Shown here one piece after another: positions 47,446-62,880 of a stretch of 64,000 nucleotides of DNA. Numbering within the stretch: the first letter of the stretch is position 1; each line of letters starts with the position of its first letter. Under the pieces are notes generated by a model. It saw only the letters and a list, made by a program, of their open reading frames with translations. It searched no databases and was not told where the DNA came from. Made by a program: the position numbers and the translations under genes. The stretch comes from a virus. The stretch lies in the IMG/VR virus record IMGVR_UViG_3300001200_000009, one strand, 5' to 3'.

Positions 47446-47666
47446 CTTATTACTTTAACTTCGCCTAAAAGAAACATATGAGTAAAAGCTCAAAGTTAAC
47501 GATAACCAATCGAAGCTTATTCTCGGGATGGTTAATCCCTACCTTAGCTCTCTGAAACTTTACTAATATGTTTCCTTTATTCTCTATTAGTATAAACTAT
47601 TGAGAATGCTTTGTAAACAAAAAAATCACCACAAAGTGAAAAAGTTTTGTGGTGATTGAATTTAGC

Positions 47667-47762
47667 GAGACAAATCCTAAAGCTGGAGCTTTAATATGTG
47701 GGCATCGAGTTTGACGTCGTAGCCCACGGACGTGTTAGAAGTAAGCGTTTAGATAGCGTCTC
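47667..47762 (-). ncRNA. GCUAU/GAUUU motif RNA, copy C
   Basis: GAGAC/GTCTC, GCTAT/GATTT loop, CTAAA/TTTAG, CGCTTACTTCTA. Confidence 0.7.
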
Positions 47763-47770
47763 TATGGGGG

Positions 47771-47962
47771 TTATGAACAGGTCTTTACAGTCCCGTCAGG
47801 ATTATACATTACGCTAGCTCCATTACGAAACTGAACGTACTTGACGCCTTCAACGCAGTGATATGATTCACCAGTTACGCTAGCATCGATTGAAGCTCCT
47901 ACACCGCAACCAGATAATAGCAATGCTGAGCCAATCATGGCCGCTGTTAGTAATTTTTTCAT
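47771..47962 (-). CDS. Small lipoprotein
   Basis: Lipobox LSGC. Confidence 0.7.
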   Translation of the reverse strand: MKKLLTAAMIGSALLLSGCGVGASIDASVTGESYHCVEGVKYVQFRNGASVMYNPDGTVKTCS

Positions 47963-47964
47963 GA

Positions 47965-50139
47965 TTAGTCCTCAATATGGTCGATGTATTTATCCATGAA
48001 CTCATCGACGTTAGTGTCAAAGTCGAATACTACATCTGCATTCGAACGCTCATCTACTTGCTGTGAACCGCTTCCAAGTACTACCATTTCAGCAATCCAA
48101 CCTAGAGTTGGCTTCTTGTCAGGCATTCCAAGGAATAGCTCGGCATATTGCTTAAGGGTTTCGATATTACCCTCAATGTTACGAGAACCTTCACCAGACG
48201 AGTCAAGGTAGATGATTTTCTCATTCACCAAGTCGAAGATGAGTGGCATAACATTCCGAACTGGTTGGTCAAGAACGAACTTGGACTCAACAGTCGCTGG
48301 TTCAAAAAGTTCTCCCGAACCTAGCTTAGCTCGTTTCATGAAGCCTGCAAAGCAATTCATTGTGCTGAATGGCTCTCCAGAATATGAAAGGATTTGTGGA
48401 ACTACATAACGAGCTCCGCCTTTCAGAAACTTCGAAACGTTAAAGTCGATATATTCGGTAGCTCCATTCCAGCCAGACGTAATGTCTCCAGAATGGACAG
48501 CTTCGAATTCGCCGCGAAGATTGGTGTATGACACTTGAACAACTTGGTTCCAGTTCTCGTCGTAAGCTGCCATAGAAAGGTCAACATCACGAGCTTTCGA
48601 CCAGTGGACGAATAAACGAACCACTTCTTTATGGTCAAACGGAATCGCGCTACCTTTTTCGATAGGTGTAGACGAATCGGAGTCTCCACGCTTGTTGTAT
48701 GGAAGAACACGACCAAACAGGTCAGGGTCAATCCAGACTTTACCTAGTGAAGGCATCTTGGCGTATTGAGATAGCAAATGTCCATAAATTCGATTGCAAA
48801 CTGAGTCGCAGATTCGTTGAGCAATTGGAGCTCGATAATCTTCCGCGAACTTTACCGAATTACGAGTGCCCTTAGGAATAAAGAAGCGTTTGTCATCCGA
48901 ATTCCGATTACGGAAGTGGTAATACAATTGCATCAGAACTCGGTTCTTTACGTCTGGCATAATTTCATAGAATGCCGAAAGAACTTTGTCTGGGTCGCTA
49001 GAGTGATGAGTTGCCTCAAATCCAGCTTTCATCATTTCATCGCCAAATTTCGAACCAGTAGCTTTTGGAGGTTTTGGACCTCGAACAAGAGCGTCAAGAT
49101 GGCGAGCAAATAGGGTTGGACGCGACTTCATTAGTTTTGCGTCAAAGGGCTTAGTGCCTTCTAACATACCATGAAGTTGACGATTGAATGTCCATACAGA
49201 CTTAGGCGCGTTACGAAGAACGTGATACGCTTGAGCAGTTTTTGGATAGCGTGATGAACGACGTGGAGATGCAGGATGGATGTTCTCGCCAAGACGTAAG
49301 AACTTCTCACGATGACGAAGCAAATCTTCTTCGATGTTACTCATGCTTTCGAGCAATTCAAACACTAAACGACGTTGAGGCGATTTCAATTTGAATCGAA
49401 CCTTTGTCGACAGCGAAGTGTCAGCCTTGTTGTCGGTTAGATAGGCCGCGATGCGTAGAACATCAACCGCTCCAGACATTTGAGTCTGTAGGATTGCAGA
49501 AATTCGAGGGACTGGCCACTTCGAATCGAACAAGAGACCAGCAACAATCGGCAAGTTCTCTTTGTAGATTAGGCCTTTGATATCGGCCGCCCCAATTTTA
49601 TCAAGCGTATCGCGAACTAGAATTTTTTCTTTGCGCGATAGCGATGTTTGGGAATTCAACTTTTCGTTGATAACTTTCGCCATATCGTCTTCAGTAAAGA
49701 AGGTAAGGACCTTAAGGTCTACTGGCTCGTTGAAGGTAATTCCAGAGCTTGGAGGTACGACACCACGGTCTGACACGAATGTCCACTTGTTAGTTTGGGT
49801 ATTGAAGCCCATTCCAATACCTAGTCCAAGACCATAAGTCTCGGTAAGCGCGTACGAATACATGTCTGGAATATCGTTGGGGAAAGTTGGGAATAGAATA
49901 TTGTGGGCTACATCAGCACCAGTTAATTCTTTGGCAGTCTCAACAAAGTTAGCGTAGAACGAAAGTAGTTGAGATTGGTCTGATAGGAACAATGCGGAAA
50001 TCAGCTTTCCGTCTGGCTTATAGCCAAATTCGACCATCTGAGATACGATAGCACCAATCAAGCCTGTATTGCTTTTGTCGTAGACCTTTAAGGCTGGAAT
50101 AAAGAATACTCCGCCTAGTAGCGAAATCGTATTTTTCAT
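47965..50139 (-). CDS. Large Ter-system-type protein: alpha-helical N-region plus C-terminal TerD-like domain
   Basis: RPTLFARHLDALVR; FVHW..DVDLS..HSGDITS..ATEYIDF TerD-like motifs. Confidence 0.65.
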   Translation of the reverse strand: MKNTISLLGGVFFIPALKVYDKSNTGLIGAIVSQMVEFGYKPDGKLISALFLSDQSQLLSFYANFVETAKELTGADVAHNILFPTFPNDIPDMYSYALTETYGLGLGIGMGFNTQTNKWTFVSDRGVVPPSSGITFNEPVDLKVLTFFTEDDMAKVINEKLNSQTSLSRKEKILVRDTLDKIGAADIKGLIYKENLPIVAGLLFDSKWPVPRISAILQTQMSGAVDVLRIAAYLTDNKADTSLSTKVRFKLKSPQRRLVFELLESMSNIEEDLLRHREKFLRLGENIHPASPRRSSRYPKTAQAYHVLRNAPKSVWTFNRQLHGMLEGTKPFDAKLMKSRPTLFARHLDALVRGPKPPKATGSKFGDEMMKAGFEATHHSSDPDKVLSAFYEIMPDVKNRVLMQLYYHFRNRNSDDKRFFIPKGTRNSVKFAEDYRAPIAQRICDSVCNRIYGHLLSQYAKMPSLGKVWIDPDLFGRVLPYNKRGDSDSSTPIEKGSAIPFDHKEVVRLFVHWSKARDVDLSMAAYDENWNQVVQVSYTNLRGEFEAVHSGDITSGWNGATEYIDFNVSKFLKGGARYVVPQILSYSGEPFSTMNCFAGFMKRAKLGSGELFEPATVESKFVLDQPVRNVMPLIFDLVNEKIIYLDSSGEGSRNIEGNIETLKQYAELFLGMPDKKPTLGWIAEMVVLGSGSQQVDERSNADVVFDFDTNVDEFMDKYIDHIED

Positions 50140-50162
50140 GATAATCTCCATCATAATATTAA

Positions 50163-50230
50163 AGCGTCAAATCCTAAAACTGAGTTTTTTCAGAATAAAA
50201 GTTAGAAGGAAGTGTTTAGATAGCGACGCT
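50163..50230 (-). ncRNA. GCUAU/GAUUU motif RNA, copy D (5' leader of the TerD-like gene)
   Basis: AGCGTC/GACGCT, GCTAT/GATTT, CTAAA/TTTAG; early promoter 50271-50276. Confidence 0.7.
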
Positions 50231-50294
50231 ATTCTGTATTTGAGATTATAATATCATACCGGTCTGGCATGTAAACGATTAAATTCATTTTTGG

Positions 50295-50372
50295 TTAAAA
50301 TAGTTTGATAAGCGCTGTGTTGTTCAGAACTCGTCTAGCACGTCTACGACGGCGTCTCATAAGTGTTGACAT
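50295..50372 (-). CDS. 25-aa arginine-rich peptide MSTLMRRRRRRARRVLNNTALIKLF
   Basis: AAGGAG SD 5 nt before ATG; fills the gap between genes. Confidence 0.6.
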   Translation of the reverse strand: MSTLMRRRRRRARRVLNNTALIKLF

Positions 50373-50472
50373 TGATTACTCCTTTTAGTCAATAGAGTAA
50401 TAATTTATCACAATTATGAGTGAAAGTGAATATCCATTTGGGTATAGCTCATATGACCAAATGGACTAGCTC

Positions 50473-50832
50473 TTATTTCTGTATTAGAATTGCGTTAGTT
50501 CCGTTTTTAGAGACCACGTATGACCCTGCTAAAATGGTTACAGCGCTTGGAGCAAAATCTGGGTCAACTGCCCCAGACGAATATGAAGTAATACCCGCGC
50601 CTGTAGCTCCAATTGCAGACTGCAAATCGCCAACAGTCTCTAAACCATTGGTGTTAAAGGCAATTACATTGTTTGGATGAGCTCCTAGAAATTGAGTTGC
50701 AGTCTGACCACCTGGCAAATTCAAATTTCCAAAATTAGAAATTTGAGGCTGGACTGCATTTACTGTTTGTCCCTCTGGAGCCGCAGTAGTCGGAGCTGTA
50801 AAGAATCCTGAGTTAAAGAAAAAATTAGACAT
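50473..50832 (-). CDS. Late hypothetical protein (Gly/Ala/Thr-rich)
   Basis: Coupled to 50832-51152. Confidence 0.65.
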   Translation of the reverse strand: MSNFFFNSGFFTAPTTAAPEGQTVNAVQPQISNFGNLNLPGGQTATQFLGAHPNNVIAFNTNGLETVGDLQSAIGATGAGITSYSSGAVDPDFAPSAVTILAGSYVVSKNGTNAILIQK

Positions 50833-51152
50833 TAGTAAAGCAGTTCTGCATCTACCGCGCCAGCAGTTGACACTAATCTAATTGCCGAAACTTTTGCAGG
50901 AATAACGTCCATTGAATTTACGGTTACGTCTCCTTTACCCCAAGGTAACCAAACTGCAGTATCTGCAGCGATTTTTTCCGGGCTAGAAATTGTAAATTCA
51001 ATTCTTCCAGTAGCAGCTGTGGCTGGATAAACCCCAACTGAGACGTAGCTTAATTGATTTTCTTGAAATTGCCAAGGCTCTGATGTCCCTGGAGCGGCTA
51101 AGTCGATAGTTACATATCTATTACCGCTAGATTGGCTTGTTGTAATTGGCAT
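50832..51152 (-). CDS. Late hypothetical beta-rich protein
   Basis: TATAAATA at about 51172-51179. Confidence 0.65.
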   Translation of the reverse strand: MPITTSQSSGNRYVTIDLAAPGTSEPWQFQENQLSYVSVGVYPATAATGRIEFTISSPEKIAADTAVWLPWGKGDVTVNSMDVIPAKVSAIRLVSTAGAVDAELLY

Positions 51153-51189
51153 TGGTACCCCTTAAAGGGATATTTATACCCTGTTATTA

Positions 51190-51522
51190 CTAGTTGGCCA
51201 ATGTTATGACTCTATCCAGCCCAATCGCAATTTCTGCTACTAAAGTTTCTGGTTTATAGTCTGTTCGAATAGAGCACGAAGCCATTTCCATGACTGTTTT
51301 TGGATGTTCAAACTTGAGTTGCTCCTCCCATGATACTGCCGAAACAGCTCTGGCAGCTGGAATACCACCATCGTTCATGTGGAGAGGAGCAAGCTCGCCT
51401 AAAAATGTAAGAGATGGGTCTTCGAGATTTACAAGACCAAATGAAATCATATTGTAGTCGAGAGGATGAGGTCCATCCGATTCAACGTCAAGTACGAAAT
51501 GTCGAGACCAATCTTGCGGCAT
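51190..51522 (-). pseudogene. Truncated DnaQ-like 3'-5' exonuclease
   Basis: ExoI motif LDVESDGP..MISFG; ExoII/III motifs not seen. Confidence 0.5.
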
Positions 51523-51801
51523 TAGACTGTTTTAGCTGTCGTGCCGTAGAAATTATCTAGGCGTTTGGAAAAAGCTTCAACGTCAGCGCTAAGAGCGTTA
51601 AGGTCGAACCGGTCGTTTTCAAGGTCAGCTTCTAAGCGAAGAAGGTCTGATTGGAGGTCTTCATAAGTATCAGTTTGCATTGTATAGTCCTAATAAGAGT
51701 GAAAGATGAGATGAGCAGAGGCTCCTCTATGATGGATATGACCGCGAGGGAATCCCATATAACCCATCAAGGCGTGCTCATCTCTTATTATGGACTATAT
51801 A

Positions 51802-52278
51802 CTATTCGGTAAGGTTTGTAAACTGATAATTTTCAAAAAGGTGAAATAATCTGTTCTCTATTTTACAGACTTCGAGGGCAAGGTCTCTTAGTTCGACGGC
51901 TCGATTGTCTGAATCATGGGTGTTGTCTACATAGTGGGCTATCTCGTGTATGAACCCGTAATCGCCAAGAACTTCGTCTACCGTCAGTACTCCAGACTTG
52001 AGGCCAATAAACCCAAGAAATGTTGCAGCATGAAGAGCCTTATCGATTTCGTCGTCTAGCAGATATCTCCACACGCAAATGGGTTTAAACGAATCTTTGG
52101 CTCCATATCCATCGTACTTTTCATCAAGCCCTCTTTTCTCTATCATCTCTTCGACATCTTCGTCGTTTGAAACGAATCCAGACCCAAACCAATGAGTGTC
52201 TCCTCTAGCGTCAACTTGAGGGTATTTGCAGATGTGATACTTAGCTGACATCGAATTCCTCAAAGCTTCGCTTATCAT
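51802..52278 (-). CDS. Hypothetical protein
   Basis: 158-aa ORF. Confidence 0.6.
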   Translation of the reverse strand: MISEALRNSMSAKYHICKYPQVDARGDTHWFGSGFVSNDEDVEEMIEKRGLDEKYDGYGAKDSFKPICVWRYLLDDEIDKALHAATFLGFIGLKSGVLTVDEVLGDYGFIHEIAHYVDNTHDSDNRAVELRDLALEVCKIENRLFHLFENYQFTNLTE

Positions 52279-53992
52279 TTTCAGACTTGAATTCGTTCTC
52301 TACCTCGGCTAAAACTCCTTGTGCAGAGTCAAGTTCATAGAGTCGCATGGTAGGTTTGTCGACCCCAATCATGAACCTCAATTTCTCGTTCATGTCTTTG
52401 TATCTATTTTTCAGCTGCTTACAGAGATACTGGCCTTGCGCCGCGAGTTCTTCGGTTTGCATAACCGCAAGGAAAAAGTCAGACGTGGCCGGTAGTCCGA
52501 ACGATTCGGATGTATTGGCCAAATCGATATCGCTGTTGTTGTAACCATCACGGTTTGTCTGAGTGGCTGACACGATTGGAAGCCAGAATTCAACACCAAG
52601 TCCGCGAAGTTCTTCGGCAATAGATTTTACCATCTCGTACGTGGACGCTCCAGCGCGTAGGCGCGTAGATGACATAAGGTTAAGGTAGTCCACAAATATG
52701 ATTTTTGGAACGAAGTTTTTCTTGAGCTTCAAATCCTGTAGGAGAGCTCGAAAGTGATTGACTCCAGCGGCGCCAGCTGGATATTGTTTGATGATAAGGT
52801 CACCATTGGTCTTGGACTGGAGGCCTCCAACCTTGTGGGTAAGCGCTTCGATTTCATGGTCATCAAAATCGTTGAGGTTAATTCCCAATAGGTTTGCATC
52901 GATACGCTGGGCGATTTTGTGTTCAGCCATCTCAAGAGTAATGTAAAGGACATCATGTCCCATCGATAAAGCGGCGGCAGCCATGTGGGACATGATTAGG
53001 GATTTACCAACCCCAGTATTATGAGAGACAATACCATCAGTGTAGTATTTTTTTGACTCGCCTTCGATGCGAACATCGACAATCGGAATTTCTTCGCCAG
53101 TTTTATGGACTGTCGTCTTAGACCAGCCAGCAATAGTCATCACATGCATTTCGCCAAGCATTTCGATAGTCTGTGCCGATTGCCAGCCTGTCGTTGTCAT
53201 GACCAAATGGTCTTTGTTGCATGAGAGTTGAATACCATTGGCCGTAGTCATGACATATTCTTCATAACGACCAAGCTCGAGATATTCTTCAACGAGCTTG
53301 AACCCGTCTGGTCCTTCGACACGAACTTCATATCCGTTTTCTATGAAGGTGGGAACTTCGGCAATGATAGCAACAAATGGGTCTTCATCGTTGAGTTTGA
53401 TTTTGACCTTCGTAATTGGCGAAACGCATGAAGCCATAATGACATTCAATGAACCGGGCTCGAACCCGCCACCAGTAATTTTATTGAAGACTTCGAGGTC
53501 GAATGGTAGTTTATCCACCTGTTCTCTTAGCATTTTGAAGCGCTCTTCGGCGTCTTTAAAGTAATCATGTCCGATTGAAGCATCGAAGGTTACGCCGAGC
53601 GCGTCTTGAAGCAGTCCTGGAATGGAACCCTTCGAACGCTTAGTGTCTTTACCAAGAATGATATTGTAGGATTGGGCAATCGCAATTTCGATGGCTCGTG
53701 ATTGGCACCACGATTCGGTCTTGTCCATAATCCAATCGGCATCGGAAGTTACGTCAATAGTGAACACATCATGCAGAATGCTTGTGTCAGCGCCTACTTC
53801 TTCAAGTTCAATTCTAAGGGCGTTTTGCGATGGGAGTGCATTGAATTTCTGAACATAGTCGACGACACGCTCAAAGGTGTCTCTTGCTTCATTGTTAAAA
53901 TATGATTTGCGAATAAATGGGATGACTTTTCGCATATAGTCATCGTTTCTTAGCAAATTCGCTAAGATGGTAATCTCTAGGTTGTCTGTCAT
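52241..53992 (-). CDS. 41: Replicative DNA helicase (T4 gp41-like) with a mini-intein
   Basis: Spliced Walker A MAS|TGVGKS, ITLEMAE, IFVDYL, SATQTNR, QLKNRY. Confidence 0.93.
   Translation of the reverse strand: MTDNLEITILANLLRNDDYMRKVIPFIRKSYFNNEARDTFERVVDYVQKFNALPSQNALRIELEEVGADTSILHDVFTIDVTSDADWIMDKTESWCQSRAIEIAIAQSYNIILGKDTKRSKGSIPGLLQDALGVTFDASIGHDYFKDAEERFKMLREQVDKLPFDLEVFNKITGGGFEPGSLNVIMASCVSPITKVKIKLNDEDPFVAIIAEVPTFIENGYEVRVEGPDGFKLVEEYLELGRYEEYVMTTANGIQLSCNKDHLVMTTTGWQSAQTIEMLGEMHVMTIAGWSKTTVHKTGEEIPIVDVRIEGESKKYYTDGIVSHNTGVGKSLIMSHMAAAALSMGHDVLYITLEMAEHKIAQRIDANLLGINLNDFDDHEIEALTHKVGGLQSKTNGDLIIKQYPAGAAGVNHFRALLQDLKLKKNFVPKIIFVDYLNLMSSTRLRAGASTYEMVKSIAEELRGLGVEFWLPIVSATQTNRDGYNNSDIDLANTSESFGLPATSDFFLAVMQTEELAAQGQYLCKQLKNRYKDMNEKLRFMIGVDKPTMRLYELDSAQGVLAEVENEFKSENDKRSFEEFDVS
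53018..53428 (-). mobile_element. 137-aa mini-intein (no endonuclease)
   Basis: Starts CVSPIT, block B SCNKDH, ends VSHN before Thr. Confidence 0.9.
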
Positions 53993-54026
53993 GTTATATT
54001 ATATCATTGTTGGACGCGAATGTAAA

Positions 54027-54317
54027 CTAAGAAGATAGAGTAAAGAACTCTTCGGTTAGAATTTCGCGTAGGACCCGTTCGAAGTCAGCTATGTCGGTAA
54101 CTTCGCCATAAGGGTCTTCTAGGATATTGTAGGTGAACGTAAGGTCTGGCCTTCGTAGCAGCCTCTTCTTAAGCTGAAGAGTGTCATAACGGAATACTAC
54201 CGAGCTGTATTTGCCCGATAGTATTCTAATGTTGTAATGATGGTCTGTGTAAGAAGGCTCTAGAATATAGTCTTCTTTAGCTTTCATCTTCTGCCTCGGC
54301 AGCTTCCATGATTTCAC
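54027..54317 (-). CDS. Hypothetical protein in the T4 gp40 position
   Basis: Lies between uvsX and 41. Confidence 0.5.
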   Translation of the reverse strand: MKSWKLPRQKMKAKEDYILEPSYTDHHYNIRILSGKYSSVVFRYDTLQLKKRLLRRPDLTFTYNILEDPYGEVTDIADFERVLREILTEEFFTLSS

Positions 54318-55386
54318 GAGCAGCCATTAAAGCTTTTGAGTCAAGTTTGAATTTACGCTTGATAGCCTCATTGAAATCCGTGTCACGGAAGATGTCTTCC
54401 CAAAACTCTGGATTTTCAGTTGCTGAACGACGGAAGTTTTTACCATTCGGATGGTCCGAGTCTAGTACTTCTCCGGTCTCCATGTCGACCTTACAGAACC
54501 AGCCGTTTTTAGGCTTAGCGCAGTAGCCAAGTTCGAGTGCGATATCCAACAGCCCTGAATGGGTCATTACACCGCCATCAAAGGTAACGATAATCGGAAT
54601 TTTAACTTTCTCTTTGATGTAACGTGACTTCTCGAGACGAATGTTAAAGCTATAACCAGCGACCAGGTCTGTAGACTTGGTGTCATCTTTGATTTGTGAA
54701 CGTGTGATATTCCAAATGATGTCAGGCGAGAATGTAGCTTTCTTACCACCACCAATATTTAGGCTGTAGGAGTTTCCTGGACCGTCATAAGCATGGTTGA
54801 TAATCCACATTGGGATGCCGAAATTTTTGACGTAAGGCGTAATCGAACGGAACCATGAAGTTACGGCTTTAGCACGACGACCGGCATCTGCTTTCAATTC
54901 ACCATTTTCTCCGGCAGTTACTTCTTCTTTAGACGCAAGGTTACCAAGCGAGTCGACTCCAACGAAGATATTGTCTTCCGCGAAGTTGAGCTTTGTAAAG
55001 ATAGACATCGATTCAAGATGAAGCTCTTCGACATTCATGACTGGAATATGGAAGAATCGTGTCTTGTCGATTCCTGCATTGTCCAGCATCTCTTCGGTCG
55101 CGCCGTTTTCTGAGTCAAAGAATACAAAAATAGCTTCCGGATATTCACGTTGCCAAGCAGCACCGGCCATAAGAAGGAAGTTAGTCTTAAATGTACGAGA
55201 GTCACCAACAAGCATTACCATATCGGTACCTACTCCACCTTCAAGGGCATCGCCTCTTAAGGCAATATTGAGTTCAGGAGAGTCAGTGACGGCGACTCCT
55301 TCACGTCTTACGATTTTTGCTTCGCCAAATGCTCCACCACGGGAGTTCTTATGCGAAGCTTTTTTGAGTCTGCTAATTGCTGACAT
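54277..55386 (-). CDS. uvsX: RecA-like recombinase UvsX
   Basis: GDSRTFKTN, FFDSENG, DSLGNLASKEE, KSRYIKEK. Confidence 0.93.
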   Translation of the reverse strand: MSAISRLKKASHKNSRGGAFGEAKIVRREGVAVTDSPELNIALRGDALEGGVGTDMVMLVGDSRTFKTNFLLMAGAAWQREYPEAIFVFFDSENGATEEMLDNAGIDKTRFFHIPVMNVEELHLESMSIFTKLNFAEDNIFVGVDSLGNLASKEEVTAGENGELKADAGRRAKAVTSWFRSITPYVKNFGIPMWIINHAYDGPGNSYSLNIGGGKKATFSPDIIWNITRSQIKDDTKSTDLVAGYSFNIRLEKSRYIKEKVKIPIIVTFDGGVMTHSGLLDIALELGYCAKPKNGWFCKVDMETGEVLDSDHPNGKNFRRSATENPEFWEDIFRDTDFNEAIKRKFKLDSKALMAAREIMEAAEAEDES

Positions 55387-55388
55387 TA

Positions 55389-56459
55389 TTACTCCAAAAA
55401 TGCAGAAAGGTCATTTGCTTTAGGCTCACCTGTCCAATAAGGATATGCAGCACGCGCTAAATGAACGCTTCTTGGTTTTTCCATATATTCGAAGGACAAT
55501 TCCTTCTTCTCATTGATATAGTGTTCCCATGGATTCACAAACTTTATCCGTGGGTTATTCGCTGCGGCATTCTCAAGCGCTTGGTTGAAAACGTCTTTAA
55601 TATGATTTCGTTCTTCCCATGTGCCCCAATATGGTTCACCTTCGTAATAGCCAGATTTAGGCAATTTACGGGATACGTCTTCAATAGGAAGAGCTGCAAT
55701 GAGTGTTACATTGCAATCTTGTTCTTCGATAATTTGAGCCGCTAGTTTTGCATAGGCTTGAGTCAGCTTTAAAGTCTTGACTGTTCGTTCGTCTTTCGAC
55801 TTCGTATCTCGAGCTAAGTGGTGCCGAATGTCGATATTGCCAAAATAGAGTTCAACTTCTTGGATAGGCGCACATGATTTTTCACGATACTCTTTGACAA
55901 GCTCGGACAAATTCTTTGAATTGTCCTTCATAGAACCAAATAGAGTACGGAATGGAACTTGCCATACAGTCCAACCAGGTCGATAGAGAGATATTGAGTG
56001 CGAATCACCAAGGACCAGTTTGTTCTTTGCGAATGGGGTCCAAGGCTCGGGAATGGTTTTCATTGTTCGAATAGACTCCCAATTTTCATAGTCTATTCCA
56101 GCAAGGTTGGGATGATTTTGGTCGCCTTTGGCGCGGTCTAATAATTGACCGACATAGTCAGGCATCTTCATCTCAAGAGAGATGATATTGTCAGGGTCGC
56201 AACGCGACAAAGAGGCTATTGAATGGGGTTTAAAGGCGGTAATCCCGCCGAATAAATTAAGTCCTCCGCTATAATCGCCATGATAAACAACAACAAGGTC
56301 ATATTCTGTTAACTCCAGTTTTGAGCCCACATCGATGTCGACTTGCGCTTCAGGATAACCCTCACGAAAAACTTCAGCATAAATGTAGGCCTTTGCAGAA
56401 CGATGAGAATAAGGTGATTTGGTAATGCCCTGCATAGGGGCGGTAACTACGATTTTCAT
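55389..56459 (-). CDS. Unknown 356-aa enzyme in the T4 beta-gt position (SGNH-like C-half)
   Basis: VLGDSH, YFGNID, terminal SVH; directly upstream of uvsX. Confidence 0.55.
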   Translation of the reverse strand: MKIVVTAPMQGITKSPYSHRSAKAYIYAEVFREGYPEAQVDIDVGSKLELTEYDLVVVYHGDYSGGLNLFGGITAFKPHSIASLSRCDPDNIISLEMKMPDYVGQLLDRAKGDQNHPNLAGIDYENWESIRTMKTIPEPWTPFAKNKLVLGDSHSISLYRPGWTVWQVPFRTLFGSMKDNSKNLSELVKEYREKSCAPIQEVELYFGNIDIRHHLARDTKSKDERTVKTLKLTQAYAKLAAQIIEEQDCNVTLIAALPIEDVSRKLPKSGYYEGEPYWGTWEERNHIKDVFNQALENAAANNPRIKFVNPWEHYINEKKELSFEYMEKPRSVHLARAAYPYWTGEPKANDLSAFLE

Positions 56460-56959
56460 TTGGCTAAAATGTACTCCATAATAAATTTGACGCCATCGTT
56501 ATCGCCAGTCGTTTCTTGGAACTCATAGTCACCAAGCATATTGCGGATGTCGTCGTCAAGTTTCTTAGACTGTTCTTCGTCATGAACCCGTCCATAGGTA
56601 GCAAACGGCTTGGTACGATTCAAAAAGAAGTTGATGTTATCAGAAGAGCGGGCTTGGAAATCTCCATGAATCGCTCTTCTGAGGATGATATTGTCCGTGT
56701 ATGCCGCGCAAAGGAGGGTTGGACAATCGGTGATGATGTAATCGACTTTGCCGATAAGACGCTGAATTCTCCATGTTTGAACACCCCACACATATGAAGG
56801 ACATTTGAGCGCTTCAGGATTGGAGTATGCAAGGTCCTTCGCGAATTCGGTTACGAGTTCACATTGTTCTGCATGGTCTTTAAAGGAGGCGAATAATTTA
56901 GAAGCAGTAGTCGATTTGCCAGCCCCAGGGCCAGCGAATAGGTTGATTATTTTCGTCAT
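56456..56959 (-). CDS. P-loop kinase (NadR/AAA_28-like)
   Basis: FAGPGAGKST, EFAK, ITDCP. Confidence 0.75.
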   Translation of the reverse strand: MTKIINLFAGPGAGKSTTASKLFASFKDHAEQCELVTEFAKDLAYSNPEALKCPSYVWGVQTWRIQRLIGKVDYIITDCPTLLCAAYTDNIILRRAIHGDFQARSSDNINFFLNRTKPFATYGRVHDEEQSKKLDDDIRNMLGDYEFQETTGDNDGVKFIMEYILAK

Positions 56960-56997
56960 TGATATATTATAACATCTCTGTTTGTGGAAGTAAACGC

Positions 56998-57357
56998 TTA
57001 TTTTTGAATGTGGCGATTATTTTCAATCTCGTTCTTAATCCACTTAGCATCGCCGTCGTGGTCAACGCTAACGATTTCCTTAAAGCCTGTCATAAGGATG
57101 TGAATTTCAGCCTTGTCTGGAAAGTAGAAATAACCAGATTGGGTGATAATCATATCACCGTTTTCGAAAGCCTCAACATAGGTTTCCCAGAAATCATCGT
57201 AGGTCGATTTCATTTCTTCACGGTTTTCGCATTCAAAAACCGGTTTGTTGTCGACGAGCTTAAAGGTAATCTTATGGCTTTTCAAGCGATTGCCAAAGGG
57301 CTTCTTCTTATTGACGATAAACCAGTCTTGGCTAAGAAGGATTCTATCCTGGGTTGG
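56998..57357 (-). CDS. Hypothetical protein
   Basis: Probable start MPTQDR. Confidence 0.55.
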   Translation of the reverse strand, partial: PTQDRILLSQDWFIVNKKKPFGNRLKSHKITFKLVDNKPVFECENREEMKSTYDDFWETYVEAFENGDMIITQSGYFYFPDKAEIHILMTGFKEIVSVDHDGDAKWIKNEIENNRHIQK

Positions 57358-58108
57358 CATTATATCTCTTACGTTGGCGCTCTTTCCAGTCATCTGGGAC
57401 TTCTTCCTCTTCGTTATCTCCAATTCGCCAATCAAACATCGCATCGTCAACGTCGTTGTGAGGAGGACTATAAAATTGACCCAGTCCTCTTGGTTCTACG
57501 CTAAACACCGTTGGAATATTTATGGTCTTGGGGATAAATGGATGTCTATAAGGATGTGCATGCTCTGGATGTCCGCAAGCATTACAAATAGCAGTAGGCG
57601 TAGACGCTGGAGATTTAAGAGTCTCTTTAAAGCTTTCAACGAATTCATCTATCGTAGATTGGTCTGGCGTTTCGGCATATTCAGTCATGATGACTCCACC
57701 ATATTCAAAGATTTTTTCAGACTTTCGCTGAGACTCTTCCCATCTAGGGTCATCATGAATATCCATAAAGACGACATGCTCAACACCCGCGTTCACGAGT
57801 TTTCCAGCGCATGAAGAGCAAGGAGCTAGCCCATAAATATAGACAGTCGAACCTTCAAGCGATACACCATTTTTGGCAGCATTGATGATTACGTTTTCTT
57901 CGGCATGAATAATGTGAACATACTTGACTTCACGATTATCGAGATATTCAGCTGTATCGGGCAATCCTTTCGGAAGTCCATTATATCCTTGTGCCAGAAT
58001 ACGACGGTCTTTTACAGCAACCGCTCCAATTTGTTTTGAAGGGTCTTTAGACCAAGTTGAGATGAGTTCGGCCATCTCCATAAACCGTATGTCCCATTTG
58101 TTAAGCAA
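57344..58108 (-). CDS. dCMP deaminase with C-terminal extension
   Basis: SKDPS, GYNG, HAEEN, APCSSC. Confidence 0.88.
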   Translation of the reverse strand: MLNKWDIRFMEMAELISTWSKDPSKQIGAVAVKDRRILAQGYNGLPKGLPDTAEYLDNREVKYVHIIHAEENVIINAAKNGVSLEGSTVYIYGLAPCSSCAGKLVNAGVEHVVFMDIHDDPRWEESQRKSEKIFEYGGVIMTEYAETPDQSTIDEFVESFKETLKSPASTPTAICNACGHPEHAHPYRHPFIPKTINIPTVFSVEPRGLGQFYSPPHNDVDDAMFDWRIGDNEEEEVPDDWKERQRKRYNANPG

Positions 58109-58496
58109 CTCGTACTCTCCCGTTTGTTAGTGTTGTGTGACCAAGTTTTTCGGTCCATTCGCGCCATGTGTCAATCCATGGACCTCTAAAGGATAAGACC
58201 CAGCTTGACCCGATTGAACGAACCTTATGCATCTTTTCTCTTGGTGTATAGATAGGTTTCCAAGATGGTCTATATCTCCGTTCAAATCTGGGAAATTTGA
58301 AATCCTCTTCCATCAACGAATGGCCTTTGAGATACCAAGAGATGGCATTAAAGGCGTGGGTATGAAATGCTTCTCTAGACCCGTGATGAAAATTCAGAAG
58401 CACAATCGAAAATGCTGGTTTCAGCTCGATTAGGAAATATCCATCAACACACGAATCTTTACCGCCGTCTTTTGCTTTCTGAAAAAATCTAGCCAT
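58101..58496 (-). CDS. Cupin-like hypothetical protein
   Basis: FHTHAF..MHKV..SWVLSFRGP. Confidence 0.6.
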   Translation of the reverse strand: MARFFQKAKDGGKDSCVDGYFLIELKPAFSIVLLNFHHGSREAFHTHAFNAISWYLKGHSLMEEDFKFPRFERRYRPSWKPIYTPREKMHKVRSIGSSWVLSFRGPWIDTWREWTEKLGHTTLTNGRVRVA

Positions 58497-58702
58497 TAAA
58501 CCGCAGCTCTTACGAAGCAGTCTTTTGCTTCAAGAAGTTTTTGAAGACCTAGGGCAGCTTGTTCGGCTTGAGCGCCAGAAGAGCCCTTGAAATTACTATA
58601 CATCCGATTAGCAAGTTCGCCAAAAGGCTGGCTAATAGTCTTAAGATGCGGTGGAAGATGTTCATAAGCGAAAAATTCTATTGGTGTTGTTAGCGTAGCC
58701 AT
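58496..58702 (-). CDS. Small helical protein (FxYxHLP..KLLEAKD..VRA)
   Basis: Start MATLTT, coupled to the gp42-like gene. Confidence 0.7.
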   Translation of the reverse strand: MATLTTPIEFFAYEHLPPHLKTISQPFGELANRMYSNFKGSSGAQAEQAALGLQKLLEAKDCFVRAAV

Positions 58703-59358
58703 TAAGCTTCCTTTACTAAATTGAAGTGGCGTTCGTAGACATGAAGGGAACCGACTTGCCAAAAGATTTCTCCTTGTTCGACTCCAAGGTCAGCGCAAAG
58801 GTCTTTATGAACATGGTCTGCCCATGCAAAGTCGTTTTTATATCCGAAAATGGCGTCATTTGACCGCATTTGAACAATAGCATCGAGGCTTTGCCCATTC
58901 CATAGATATTGATGAGCATTGGTGCAAACAAAATCATTCATGCCGTTTTCAAAAGCATCGACATGCATGGTTGGTCTTTGATAAATCATAATCGCCCGAC
59001 GAGAGTCGATATTGTCTTCAAGGGCATTTAGCGCTGCCGTGTACTGGTGTCCGTTCTCTTTAGAGTAAATACACCATCCGTAATTTGAATTGATTTTGCC
59101 GTCTTTATCCGCAACGCTCTCCCAAATTGCTGGTGTTTTACCTGGAATATCGGCGACTTGTCTAGATTTGGACAGATACCATTGGAGTTCTCGTTCGATA
59201 TATTCATTGGGCTTCCCGAAGATTGTGTTTTCATCAGCAATAAATGAGGCGCCTGGAATTTCAAGCATCTTACAGCCAGTTTTATCTGTCTTAAATTGCT
59301 CATCTTCTAGCATAGCTATAAACGTATCGCGAATGTTATGTACTGATGGCTTAAACAT
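58702..59358 (-). CDS. Thymidylate-synthase-fold dCMP hydroxymethylase/hydroxylase (T4 gp42-like)
   Basis: NSNYG, SRRAI, VCT, MRSNDAIFGYKND (Asp at the TS Asn177 position), GSLHVYERH. Confidence 0.8.
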   Translation of the reverse strand: MFKPSVHNIRDTFIAMLEDEQFKTDKTGCKMLEIPGASFIADENTIFGKPNEYIERELQWYLSKSRQVADIPGKTPAIWESVADKDGKINSNYGWCIYSKENGHQYTAALNALEDNIDSRRAIMIYQRPTMHVDAFENGMNDFVCTNAHQYLWNGQSLDAIVQMRSNDAIFGYKNDFAWADHVHKDLCADLGVEQGEIFWQVGSLHVYERHFNLVKEA

Positions 59359-59938
59359 TGGTGAACTCCACAAACTTTGCGACTTCAACATAAAGGTCTT
59401 CGAGCGACCCATTGTTGTCTATGAAATATCCAGCATAGGTCTTTGGAATATCGAAACTGGATTTCGGTTCGAGCTCATGGCGGTCAGAAGCATCGACCCA
59501 TACGATGTAATCAAATAATCCTTGCTTGATACACTCTTGAAGTTCAGCAAGTCGTCTCATTCCGCAATAGATGTCTCCACCGCGTAGAACGTTTTTAGCG
59601 TGCGCGCAAGGGTCGTCTTTGTTAAATGTTGCGATGGCTTCGAACCAAGTTGGGCGATGCCTGCCGCGGTCTTCGAAGCAGTCCATCGCAGACTTATAGC
59701 CTTCGTTTGGAAGATAATTTTTCCAAATCCATTCAGCAATTAGAATGCTAGAAGGATTAAATGCGAAGTCGTGCTTGTCTCTAAGAATTTCGCTGACTGT
59801 ATCTTTACCATGTCGGGCATGGCCAAGGATTAGAATTTTGGGTTTTGAAGAGCGTTCGTCATAAACGATATGCTCCGGATAATCGGTTGGGACATCAATT
59901 GTCAATCGCTCAACCGTAAGCGTTGTGTAGTCTATCAT
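59351..59938 (-). CDS. Deoxynucleoside monophosphate kinase-like
   Basis: ILGHARHGKDTV, GMRR..E, IDNNGSLEDL; early promoter 59991-59996. Confidence 0.75.
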   Translation of the reverse strand: MIDYTTLTVERLTIDVPTDYPEHIVYDERSSKPKILILGHARHGKDTVSEILRDKHDFAFNPSSILIAEWIWKNYLPNEGYKSAMDCFEDRGRHRPTWFEAIATFNKDDPCAHAKNVLRGGDIYCGMRRLAELQECIKQGLFDYIVWVDASDRHELEPKSSFDIPKTYAGYFIDNNGSLEDLYVEVAKFVEFTNV

Positions 59939-60063
59939 TAGAACCTTAATATTGGGGTATAGACCTATTATATCATTTTTCGTTAGTGATGTAAACATAT
60001 AAATAAAAATGCGTCCACGATGTGCAACCATCCGACGCTCTAATACTAAAGGGAGTAATCAGC

Positions 60064-60525
60064 ATGGTTATTTATACCGTCTACAAGACCACCAATCTCA
60101 TCAATAATAAAACCTATATCGGTGTTCATAAAACAATGGACCCTAATGACTCGTATTTAGGGTCCGGCGAAGCTATCAAAGCTGCAATAAAGAAATATGG
60201 AAGACATAATTTCTCTAAAGAAGTTTTGTTCTCGTTCGATAATTCTGCCGATATGTTGGCCAAAGAGGCCGAGTTGGTAGAAATCAATGAGAATACATAT
60301 AACCTAATCAAAGGCGGCGGAAGTTATAGCGAAACTTCCTATAAAATTACTGAATCACATCGTAAAAATCTTTCTAAAAGTCTAACCGGTAGAAAGCTCT
60401 CAGAAGAGACTAAAGCTAAAATGAGGGCTTCAGCTGGTCATAGAAGAGGTAAGAAGAATTCTATTGAACACAATCTTAAAATTTCTAAGACCTTAAAAGA
60501 GAAGGCAAAGCATTCCAATTTTTAG
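60064..60525 (+). CDS. Free-standing GIY-YIG homing endonuclease
   Basis: YTVYKTTN..TYIG, YLGSG, NUMOD3; TATAAATA 59998-60005. Confidence 0.9.
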   Translation: MVIYTVYKTTNLINNKTYIGVHKTMDPNDSYLGSGEAIKAAIKKYGRHNFSKEVLFSFDNSADMLAKEAELVEINENTYNLIKGGGSYSETSYKITESHRKNLSKSLTGRKLSEETKAKMRASAGHRRGKKNSIEHNLKISKTLKEKAKHSNF

Positions 60526-61033
60526 CTGTTGGATGAAATGAAGTTAAGACCTTGGCAATCGTTGAGTTATCCAATATTCCGTATTGCTGCACTTGTGTAA
60601 ACGAGTAATTTAAGACACTGCCGTAAGCGGTTTCTTTCAGTTGAAACATTCGTCTCTGGTCTTGGGGTACTTCGTATACCCTTATTGTCGATTGGTCTGA
60701 GGCAGGAACCCGAACGATGATTAGCCTATCTACCGATGTAATTTTACGCTCTTGACTGGCTTCGATTGAATAGACTCTTTCCTTCATGAATGGGAAAATA
60801 GTCTTGACCTCGTAAGTTTGCCCTTGGACTGTGCCGTCTTTTTCAGAGTCCCACCAATCTTCGGTCATTTGGACATCGCCATCATATTCATGCCAAAGCA
60901 TTTCAAAGGCGATTGCCTCTCCAATAATACCTTGTTTAAGAATGTCGCCCTTACGACCCGTGGGCTTAACTTCCTGTAAAGCTCGGGTTAATTCTTTTAG
61001 TGTCTCATCGCGGACAGTCGTAAGCTTAATCAT
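60485..61033 (-). CDS. Putative PD-(D/E)xK nuclease
   Basis: GIIGEAIA..KDG..YEVKT. Confidence 0.5.
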   Translation of the reverse strand: MIKLTTVRDETLKELTRALQEVKPTGRKGDILKQGIIGEAIAFEMLWHEYDGDVQMTEDWWDSEKDGTVQGQTYEVKTIFPFMKERVYSIEASQERKITSVDRLIIVRVPASDQSTIRVYEVPQDQRRMFQLKETAYGSVLNYSFTQVQQYGILDNSTIAKVLTSFHPTAKNWNALPSLLRS

Positions 61034-61424
61034 TATTAAGGAAGCTCAAATCGATTTCATCTTCGTCAAAATCTCCAGATTCTACTCTAGCTTGGGCTCT
61101 TTCTCTAGCTTTTCTAAGAACTGTCATCTCAGAGCTAATGCTCATCAAAGCTTTGAGGTGAACTTCGGTCACCTTATGCCTATATGATTTCGCGATTTTG
61201 GTGTGTATAAACATATGGCAAAACTTGCAAAGCGTCACTCCATTGCTTACTGTAAATCTAAGAAGAGGATGATATTTGGCGCTTCGAATATGATGGGCTT
61301 CGCGTGTCTGTCGGTCTCCACAGCATTTACATACTCCGTCTCGACGGATAACGTAAATTTTCCAAAGCCTATAAGCCTTAGTTCTGCGCCAGTGTTTAGT
61401 TATAGGGGGAAGAGTGATAGTCAT
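61026..61424 (-). CDS. HNH endonuclease
   Basis: CKCC, EAHHI..SNGVTLCKFCH. Confidence 0.85.
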   Translation of the reverse strand: MTITLPPITKHWRRTKAYRLWKIYVIRRDGVCKCCGDRQTREAHHIRSAKYHPLLRFTVSNGVTLCKFCHMFIHTKIAKSYRHKVTEVHLKALMSISSEMTVLRKARERAQARVESGDFDEDEIDLSFLNND

Positions 61425-62353
61425 TACATATTGCCGTATACGAATTCGAGTGCTCGATTCGCTTCTTTAATTATTGGTCTTGTTTTGAACCGATTTTTCT
61501 GATAACGCTGGTCAATTTGGCGGACCAGAGTTTCGAGTTCTTCAGCAGTAATCGGATAGCCCTTTTTGACCGCAATGCCGGCGATTGAACACATCAACTG
61601 GAATAAGAATCGGTAACGTCCATCATTGAGCGCTGCATATTCCATCACCAATTCTTCGCGTACGAACGGACAGTCACGATAGTCTGTCCATTGGAACGTT
61701 TTAGTAAGAGTAGCTTTACGCTGATTGAGAATTTCTTCTTTCAGCTGTGGCGGTAGATTGTCAAAAAAGTTAGATGCGGTTGGAGTATATTCGTGACGAC
61801 TCATTAACTCTTTAGGGTCTAAGATTGGACCTTTATTTGTGAAGATGAAATTGTAGGCGTCTGGATATTGACCTGGAATGTAATACATCCGTGAAAGGTC
61901 TTTTGTCGATTCGTCTCCTTCTCCCAAATACTCTTGATTGAGTGCGAACCAAAAATGACTGATGTCATCACGATGGACAGGTTCGGTAAGAGGAAATACT
62001 AGTCTGAATTTAGGATGTTCTTTGGTTGAAGAAGCAGTTGAATAGCAGACGTAGTAGTTGTCTTGAATTCCTGCTATGAGCTCGTCGTATGAGCATTCAT
62101 AGTCATCAACATCGAGCGCGGCCCAACTACACCATTCCATGACATTACGATTTGCTCGAGTAGTCCCTTCCTCATAGGATGCAGGACTTATTAGAGGAGC
62201 ATCGCCCTTTGAAGGCTTCTCGCCCTTTGGAGTTTTGCGGGTCCTCTTCTTATGAAGGGAATAGAGTAAATCCTCGAGTCCTTGAAAGTCCTCAAAGAGC
62301 ATGGTCTTATGCGTCTTATTGTCGAAGATGTTTTTGAATATGGTGAGTTGCAT
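61424..62353 (-). CDS. Primase-polymerase (AEP)-like protein
   Basis: LISPA, ALDVDD, YSTASS..PKFRLVFPL. Confidence 0.7.
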   Translation of the reverse strand: MQLTIFKNIFDNKTHKTMLFEDFQGLEDLLYSLHKKRTRKTPKGEKPSKGDAPLISPASYEEGTTRANRNVMEWCSWAALDVDDYECSYDELIAGIQDNYYVCYSTASSTKEHPKFRLVFPLTEPVHRDDISHFWFALNQEYLGEGDESTKDLSRMYYIPGQYPDAYNFIFTNKGPILDPKELMSRHEYTPTASNFFDNLPPQLKEEILNQRKATLTKTFQWTDYRDCPFVREELVMEYAALNDGRYRFLFQLMCSIAGIAVKKGYPITAEELETLVRQIDQRYQKNRFKTRPIIKEANRALEFVYGNM

Positions 62354-62602
62354 TGAAGTCCAAAAAGGCTAGGTCCGAAGACCTAGCAAGTTTAAGGGGA
62401 GAATGTGCAAAATCGACTTCCGCACTTGTATATTATAATCTATTTCGAATGGAATGTAAATACGAAAAATCCTCCTAATCAAATGAATTAGGAGGACTTA
62501 ACGGAGGATAACCAATGGAGATGATTTCCTCAAGGCCACCTTACGGCGACTCCACCATCCGACTTTTGGGAGATAAGAGGTGTCGGAGGACCTCTATTTT
62601 GA

Positions 62603-62734
62603 AGAGTCAAATCACGCTGCTAAAAAGGCGCTCTACCACTGAGCTATCCTCCCATAAAGGTGGGAGGAGTGGGATTCGAACCCACGACCCGCTGCTCCGA
62701 ATGCAATAGAAGTAAGCGAACATATAGCGACTCT
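62603..62734 (-). ncRNA. GCUAU/GAUUU motif RNA, copy B, with permuted tRNA module (62628-62692)
   Basis: AGAGTC/GACTCT; T arm, TCCTCCC-loop-GGGAGGA, D arm. Confidence 0.8.
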
Positions 62735-62741
62735 ATTTTAA

Positions 62742-62880
62742 AGGACTAAATCATACAGCTAAAAAGGCTCGGTGCGTTTACCATTTCGCCACCCTCCGCA
62801 TGGTTAGCCGAGGGGCAGGACTCGAACCTGCAAATACCGAGTTTGACAATATTAGAAGTAAACGTGTATATAGCAATCCT
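62742..62880 (-). ncRNA. GCUAU/GAUUU motif RNA, copy A, with permuted tRNA module (62768-62841)
   Basis: AGGATT/AGTCCT; CTCGG, T arm, CCCTCGG-loop-CGGAGGG, D arm, CCGAG. Confidence 0.8.

Follow-up and report, generated by a model that had tools for sequence, protein, structure and literature searches.

Particles formed by the protein Ro60 and its small Y RNAs, described in humans as well as in bacteria, are a classic RNA-surveillance system, whose roles in bacteria and phages are still poorly understood. A Y RNA tethers Ro60 to the exoribonuclease PNPase, and the Ro60 protein of Thermus phage phiLo, together with its Yrl RNAs, engages the host PNPase (PMC12135203). YrlA has a 5′ motif for the binding of Rsr, GNCGAAN0-1G, which is located in a stem or an internal loop (PMC4201824). 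A jumbo-phage review mentions stand-alone phage TerD genes solely as components of the Ter system (PMC7824862). Here we analyze a 64,000-nt stretch of DNA (the window), part of a 159-kb, tRNA-gene-rich phage record in IMG/VR (IMGVR_UViG_3300001200_000009), which contains four copies (A to D) of a structured RNA element and the gene of a 724-aa protein with a TerD-type fold. We consider it probable that the four elements and this cognate protein make up a ribonucleoprotein of the Ro60/Y-RNA type, built on a different protein lineage and on a new RNA handle. Literature searches returned no description of this RNA-protein pairing, in keeping with the suggestion, made in the initial annotation of this DNA, that the phage system is undescribed.

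All four copies lie on the minus strand (Table 1), and the minimum-energy fold of each contains an outer stem (P1), an internal loop and an inner stem (P2). The core pattern GCTAT-N5-CRYTTMCTTCTA gives four matches where 0.03 are expected by chance, and scanning the whole 159-kb genome for the same pattern revealed no fifth copy. In copy A, for example, the handle consists of P1 GAGAC/GUCUC, a GCUA x AUUU loop, P2 U-CUAAA-[C]-GCU / AGC-UUUAG-G and the strand UACUUCUA. The initial annotation had placed four minus-strand copies at these coordinates, had listed their P1 and P2 pairings, and had assigned one copy to a 5′ leader (D) and one to the region after the operon (A), all of which is borne out by the sequence, the folds and the positions.

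To describe the family more widely we used homologues of the protein gathered from public phage records and from 59 IMG/VR loci; the counts below refer to 55 non-redundant loci. The consensus was derived from a structure-aware scan and a MAFFT alignment of 44 short copies, and reads: P1 ending in GG; CUA; a U and P2 (9-10 bp) ending in CU; U(C/A)CUUCUA; the payload; AG and P2′; (A/C)UUU; and CC with P1′. The universal element of the family is UCCUUCUA/UACUUCUA, and in this single strand U27, C29, U30, U31 and C32 are approximately 100% conserved. P2 is thus longer than the 5 bp first listed, because it extends past a bulged C into the start of what had been called a conserved strand (GCU/AGC or ACU/AGU). 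That description therefore holds in part: U(A/C)CUUCUA is conserved and truly unpaired, whereas the first bases of the proposed strand are paired in P2. As an observation of our own, the invariant pyrimidine strand U(C/A)CUUCUA (UCCUUCUA) appears complementary to purine-rich sequences of the Shine-Dalgarno type and may resemble the 3′ tail of Firmicute 16S rRNA.

The internal loop behaves differently from what was first proposed. Comparison with 120 relatives shows that the family-wide form is CUA x NUUU, situated between the last pair of P1 (G.U) and the first pair of P2 (U.G), and that the GCUAU x GAUUU loop of the window, initially taken to be invariant, is only its local form. The loop sequence is uniform among the copies of one phage and different between phages: GCUA/AUUU in the window, UUAAG/GCUCA in Weasels2, CGCAUG/CGCUC in RcXuper and CCA in GC-rich phages. 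A loop that is constant within each phage and varies across phages is the pattern expected if a single protein per phage reads the loop, i.e., if the two co-evolve.

The structure is supported by strong covariation. In the alignment of 44 copies 84% of the cells are paired, compared with 53.5% for shuffled sequences and 40-48% for controls with slid partners, and both sides change in 16 of the 18 pairs. A covariance model of the short-payload handle (R1) identified 118 distinct sequences with 87.7% paired cells, against 54.4% for shuffles, and most variable pair positions show every one of the four Watson-Crick pair types; these sequences, as well as the aligned copies, were chosen by scanners that reward pairing, so that the figures lean toward structure. 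Nevertheless, both the outcome with slid partners and the great diversity of stem sequences speak for a real structure, and the covarying handle with interchangeable payloads described for the four window copies is a property of the family. Within the window, copy A scores 24.4 bits against R1 (E 4e-4) and copy D, which is itself among the sequences used to build the model, 40.5 bits; for the long-payload copies B and C the model gives wrong end points. Rfam scans of the window, at the gathering thresholds and at E≤10, gave no match to the handle; the hits, all of them on payloads, were to tRNA and, partially, to YrlA. Judged from these alignments and scans, the handle RNAs are a large and well-defined family that is absent from Rfam.

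The family is tightly linked to the gene of the TerD-type protein. R1 has 120 matches at E≤0.01, found in 49 of the 55 loci that encode a homologue, and every one of them (120/120) is on the strand of the protein gene, nearly all within approximately 1 kb of it. Scanning both strands of five whole phage genomes (1.28 Mb) gave 12 matches, each of which adjoins the protein gene. The search with a covariance model and the co-occurrence with the protein thereby extend to relatives the association with a TerD-domain gene that was originally read from one locus. The handle is found in phages of actinobacteria, alphaproteobacteria and uncultured hosts, commonly as tandem arrays of 2-7 units with differing payloads. 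In Rhodococcus phage Weasels2 four copies fill a 390-nt gap just 3′ of the gene, and in Rhodobacter phage RcXuper four copies are found 5′ of it. In one relative, L080, whose protein gives a faint RING hit, R1 weakly matches the intergenic sequence immediately 5′ of the gene. No R1 match occurs in mycobacteriophage Bxz1, a carrier of canonical Ro60, and phage Felix O1 has neither an R1 match nor a member of the protein family.

The positions of the copies also allow a different interpretation, in which the elements are purely cis-acting parts of untranslated regions (UTRs) that set the translation or stability of the mRNA, for example by autoregulation through the leader, and neither form a particle in trans nor use their payloads. 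Copy D ends 24 nt before the ATG at 50139 and approximately 15 nt before the GGAG ribosome-binding site, the last upstream copy in many relatives ends approximately 10-40 nt before the estimated start, and the copies occupy 5′ or 3′ UTR positions, as such elements would. However, copies B and C lie in another transcript 12.5 kb away, copies are found solely downstream of the gene in many loci, and tandem arrays of 2-7 units with varied payloads, including whole tRNA-like bodies, do not resemble a simple operator. We therefore regard a purely cis-acting role as unlikely, though of the rival explanations it survives best. Autoregulation through copy D is possible also for an RNA that is part of a particle, but it is not required by the position of the copy, since co-transcription followed by processing explains the placement in the leader equally well.

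The payloads fall into a few types. Most copies of the family carry a hairpin of approximately 20 nt and no tRNA-like part; others carry full permuted tRNA bodies or T-arm mini-helices. In the window, copies B and C have the permuted order of YrlA (T arm, loop-closed acceptor-like stem, D arm, terminal stem), and copies A and D, without a tRNA-like domain, are YrlB-like. YrlA itself acquires tRNA modifications. Weasels2 and RcXuper each have a permuted tRNA body in one of their four copies, and YrlA-type permuted tRNA payloads stand beside four of the homologues (L013, L015, L032 and L065, with Weasels2 and RcXuper among the carriers). Copy B matches positions 27-81 of the Rfam YrlA model (RF02553) with 35.7 bits and copy C matches it partially with 21.3 bits, both below the gathering score of 69, and the copies beside the Weasels2 and RcXuper genes likewise match the tRNA-like core of YrlA below the gathering score.

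These payloads suggest a second alternative, in which the RNAs serve as decoys for host factors or as their substrates (the factors being, for instance, anticodon nucleases, enzymes that modify or process tRNA, or factors connected with the ribosome), and the protein is a mere chaperone or sits in the tRNA island as cargo unrelated to the RNAs. Both the location at the edge of phage tRNA clusters and the tRNA-like payloads would fit, as would the apparent complementarity of UCCUUCUA to Shine-Dalgarno-like sequences, which is our own reading. Yet most copies carry a short hairpin without any tRNA-like part, the conserved portion is the handle rather than the payload and tracks the protein gene genome-wide, and the loop sequence varies from phage to phage in step with the protein. 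We give this possibility slightly less weight than the cis-acting one. The remaining view, that the copies are functionless palindromic repeats or decayed tRNA genes, could appeal to AT-rich intergenic repeats near tRNA genes that ARAGORN does not call as tRNAs, but is so strongly disfavoured by the invariant unpaired motifs, the compensatory changes across phages of diverse hosts and the strict strand bias (120/120 on the strand of the gene) that it can practically be set aside.

We now turn to the protein that would bind the handle. Its full-length AlphaFold2 model (predicted local distance difference test score 86, predicted template modelling score 0.82) shows a small alpha/beta part (residues 1-150), a body of helical repeats (approximately 150-470) and a beta-sandwich of the TerD fold (approximately 500-700). 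The TerD assignment is clear at the level of structure, with a Foldseek probability of 1.0 to 3ibz and 2kxt and VIA-align Z-scores of 15.2 and 13.8 over 150 residues at a root-mean-square deviation of 2.3-2.6 (3ibz, 2kxt, 2qz7). At the level of sequence the protein has no Pfam match and belongs only to an unnamed family in PHROGs, and the Pfam TerD model itself matches just 1 of 39 family members. The family as a whole comprises 2258 representative clusters at E≤1e-3 (50% identity level), and its bacterial range is taken solely from how clusters in AlphaFold DB and the Atlas are named and classified.

When the helical body is folded alone, the two best matches among 48,161 representative chains of the PDB (VIA-align) are Ro60 proteins: phiLo Ro60 (9l5y_B; Z 10.3, 234 residues aligned) and Deinococcus radiodurans Rsr (2nvo_A; Z 9.5, 225 residues), with the next, unrelated match at Z 7.1, although values of about 10, below 13, can be reached by helical repeat proteins through a common arrangement alone. 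For the full-length model only TerD matches score higher than the Ro60 structures 2nvo, 1yvp and 9l5y, which occupy ranks 3-5 and align over 306-332 residues spanning both parts. We read the protein as Ro60-like in its modelled architecture, with TerD in the place of the vWA domain, a reading from which RNA binding and a HEAT-repeat ring, as in the solved Ro60 structures, are predicted.

A more direct relationship is found with the bacterial proteins of NCBIfam NF041916 (MXAN_6230/SCO0854 family RING domain-containing proteins), which have no known function. Homology extends over the helical body and the TerD domain (residues 136-653, E 1e-86), but the score of 291.8 bits falls below the 600-bit cut-off and the RING finger is absent; among the relatives, Prok-RING_4 matches 4 of 39. 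By these profile scores the 724-aa protein is a homologue, and not a member, of NF041916. We also considered ZorC of the Zorya defence system (EH-signature), which binds nucleic acid via a helical core (PMC11946911), because the nearest predicted structure outside the family to the N-terminal 485 residues is an AlphaFold DB cluster automatically named 'ZorC EH domain-containing protein' (E 5e-19, 23% identity). This identity was rejected: there is no PADLOC or Pfam hit to ZorC or EH and no ZorAB or ZorD in the context, and the solved ZorC chain lies outside the top 50 PDB matches, which include the Ro60 structures.

The folds of the protein also bear on whether it and the RNAs could be a pair like the type III toxin-antitoxin systems, in which a tandem RNA array is processed into units that neutralise the protein. 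The arrangement is suggestive, since many mobile genomes have tandem units immediately up- or downstream of one gene and in its orientation. In ToxIN-like systems, however, the units would be near-identical, and here P1, P2 and the payload differ between units and covary; the protein, consisting of TerD and helical repeats, shows no endoribonuclease-like fold, PADLOC defence models give no hit, and the tRNA-like payloads would be left unexplained. Such a pair seems to us very improbable, well behind the cis-acting and decoy explanations.

We return to the interpretation of the four elements and the protein as a Ro60/Y-RNA-type particle. Several observations weigh against it, in addition to the cautions given above with the covariation counts and the VIA-align scores. 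Foldseek searches of the PDB with the full model and with an N-terminal model did not retrieve Ro60, and for the latter gave nothing below E 0.03. The Pfam TROVE model (PF05731) has no hit in the protein at E≤1, and hhalign of the N-terminal profile to a profile of 20 TROVE sequences gives a probability of 0.14%. On the RNA side, the YrlA model covers only the tRNA-like part of the copies at a score below gathering, and the Rsr-binding motif GNCGAAN0-1G, as read from the sequence, does not occur in any of the four handles, CGAA being confined to the T loops. Of the comparison with Rfam YrlA/YrlB proposed at the outset, the parallel in design and the partial match of the payload hold, whereas the scores and the missing motif do not support it. 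In addition, 6 of the 55 homologue loci (L014, L055, L060, L062, L067 and L068) have no handle within 3 kb even at E≤10, and the sequencing runs that contain the window sequence are DNA only, from one algae metagenome, with no RNA-seq run among them.

Related searches at the level of sequence found no tie to the known Ro60 family. No TROVE domain is detected by Pfam in the six genomes with the system, i.e., the genome of the window and five others; YrlA is encoded within approximately 4 kb of a TROVE-domain Ro60 ortholog and on its strand, but no such ortholog is found near the copies, whose neighbour is the TerD-type protein (Pfam, whole genome). Searches of PDB sequences with the full protein and with the N-terminal profile returned only weak matches of 50 residues to designed PPR proteins.

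Given both sets of observations, the Ro60/Y-RNA-type interpretation can be formulated as follows. The four elements would encode small non-coding RNAs of a single family, either as genes of their own or as parts of longer transcripts, and we infer that these RNAs are processed out of the UTRs in which they lie. The handle (P1, the CUA x NUUU loop, P2 and U(C/A)CUUCUA) is likely to be the module recognized by the protein, and the payload, be it a hairpin, a T-arm mini-helix or a permuted tRNA body, would be an exchangeable effector or adaptor presented by the particle. The analogy with Ro60, phiLo Ro60 included, makes it probable that the particle recruits enzymes that handle RNA, or sequesters them, either exoribonucleases such as PNPase or enzymes that recognize tRNA. 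The protein may also load tRNA-mimic RNAs, as the initial annotation supposed. It would presumably act during infection, in the setting of the phage tRNA island, RNA repair or conflict with the host.

A broader proposal is that the family represents a second lineage of Ro60-shaped RNA-binding proteins, unrecognizable by sequence, in which TerD replaces vWA, which has its own Y-like RNA family, which is found in hundreds of large phages and which is homologous to the bacterial RING-TerD proteins SCO0854/MXAN_6230. We see the arguments for and against this proposal as evenly balanced. If true, it would mean that particles of the Ro/Y type are far commoner in the conflict between phages and hosts than the TROVE signature suggests, and that the enigmatic TerD domain gains a role linked to RNA. 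The handle is a candidate RNA partner for an uncharacterized family with more than 2000 clusters at 50% identity; for the TerD proteins that stand alone in phages, and likewise for the RING-TerD proteins of bacteria, it offers a first lead at the molecular level. The system is directly testable in culturable carriers (Weasels2, RcXuper, RpAliso, XacN1 and Xoo-sp13).

Table 1. Locations of the RNA copies, the protein genes and the accompanying features in the window and, in the last three lines, in related loci.
Feature	Location	Strand	Description
Gene of the 724-aa partner protein	47965..50139	-	Start codon at 50139, preceded by GGAG
RNA copy A	47667..47762	-	Handle and hairpin payload of ~48 nt; 3′ UTR of the two-gene operon
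RNA copy D	50163..50230	-	Handle and short hairpin payload of ~22 nt; 5′ leader of the 724-aa gene
RNA copy B	62603..62734	-	Handle and circularly permuted tRNA body (T arm, loop-closed acceptor stem, D arm)
RNA copy C	62742..62880	-	Handle and second permuted tRNA body with anticodon-stem-like CUCGG/CCGAG connector
Promoter-like site	50248..50275	-	TTTACA, 16-nt spacer, TG-TATTAT; just upstream of copy D; consensus match only
Terminator-like 10-bp hairpin and seven U	47619..47654	-	Operon end right after copy A; read from sequence, loop >8 nt
Terminator-like hairpin	62467..62499	-	End of the transcript carrying copies C and B
63-aa open reading frame	47771..47962	-	Lipoprotein-like signal (LLSGC); matches PHROG 7772, of no known function
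AUAG	47766-47763; 50234-50231; 62738-62735; 62884-62881	-	Immediately 5′ of P1 in all four copies
AUAG	62598-62595	-	Before the additional structured segment
Additional structured segment	62500-62600	-	~100 nt between copy B and the terminator
Phage tmRNA gene (permuted alpha-type)	RcXuper, L015 2401-2837		Just upstream of RNA array and TerD-type gene
Phage tmRNA gene	MT835874, L012 808-1105		Just upstream of RNA array and TerD-type gene
Odd tRNAs	L034 2418-2494; L050 2358-2429; L032 403-491; L046 927-1010; L036 617-691; L054 9-81		ARAGORN

The surroundings of the four copies can be read as two transcripts. Copy D follows the promoter-like site (50275-50248) and precedes the ATG at 50139, and copy A lies 3′ of the 63-aa open reading frame and 5′ of a hairpin and U-run terminator. 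The start of this reading frame overlaps the stop of the 724-aa gene, and the two are therefore on the same transcript (translationally coupled). Copy C is 7 nt upstream of copy B, both in the 3′ part of the other transcript. No nucleotide match to the locus was detected in the phage collection, and none of the window copies is reported as a tRNA by ARAGORN.

Two further features are specific to the window. The tetranucleotide AUAG, found before P1 of every copy and before the additional structured segment, forms no pairs with the 3′ flank and lacks conservation in other phages; it may act as a processing signal particular to the window phage. The segment itself has an unusually stable fold (z -4.3 for 62462-62604, with the terminator hairpin included) and opens with the same AAAAUAGAG as copy B, but none of the handle motifs is present. 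Possibly it adds a third type of RNA to the transcript of copies C and B.

Among the relatives, tRNA genes are found within 3 kb and on the same strand in approximately 29 of 53 loci, and the neighbours include tmRNA in two loci, RtcB in Weasels2 and a nucleotidyltransferase in RcXuper. Some of the tRNAs near the system, as called by ARAGORN, are odd, with suppressor-type anticodons (tta, cta) or irregular anticodon loops.

The design of the RNAs has its closest described counterpart in YrlA and YrlB, the RNA partners of Rsr (RF02553; Chen et al., 2014, PMC4201824). In both cases small RNAs are encoded beside their protein partner and on the same strand, several different RNAs occur per genome, one class has a permuted tRNA-like domain and the other only a hairpin, and there is an association with tRNA biology and with genes for RNA repair; the Yrl RNAs are bound by their protein at a terminal stem that has an internal loop, and we propose that the phage RNAs would be bound likewise. 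The handles themselves differ, since that of the phages has the CUA x NUUU loop and U(C/A)CUUCUA and no GNCGAA, and its copy number is often higher (2-7, in tandem). The phage partner protein, in turn, lacks the TROVE signature and has TerD instead of vWA.

The same combination of likeness and difference is seen when the 724-aa protein is compared with Ro60 and Rsr, including phiLo Ro60 (PDB 9L5Y/9KOP, PMC12135203; 2NVO; 1YVP). Each has a body of helical repeats followed by a C-terminal globular domain, and each is known from a phage gene encoded beside its small-RNA partners. There is however no sequence homology detectable by Pfam or hhalign, the C-terminus of the 724-aa protein is a TerD beta-sandwich and not a vWA domain with its MIDAS, and an extra N-terminal alpha/beta part of approximately 150 residues is present. 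With vWA exchanged for TerD and the handle rewritten, while the payload that mimics tRNA is kept, the payload and the logic of a ring plus a handle look like the features that selection has maintained.

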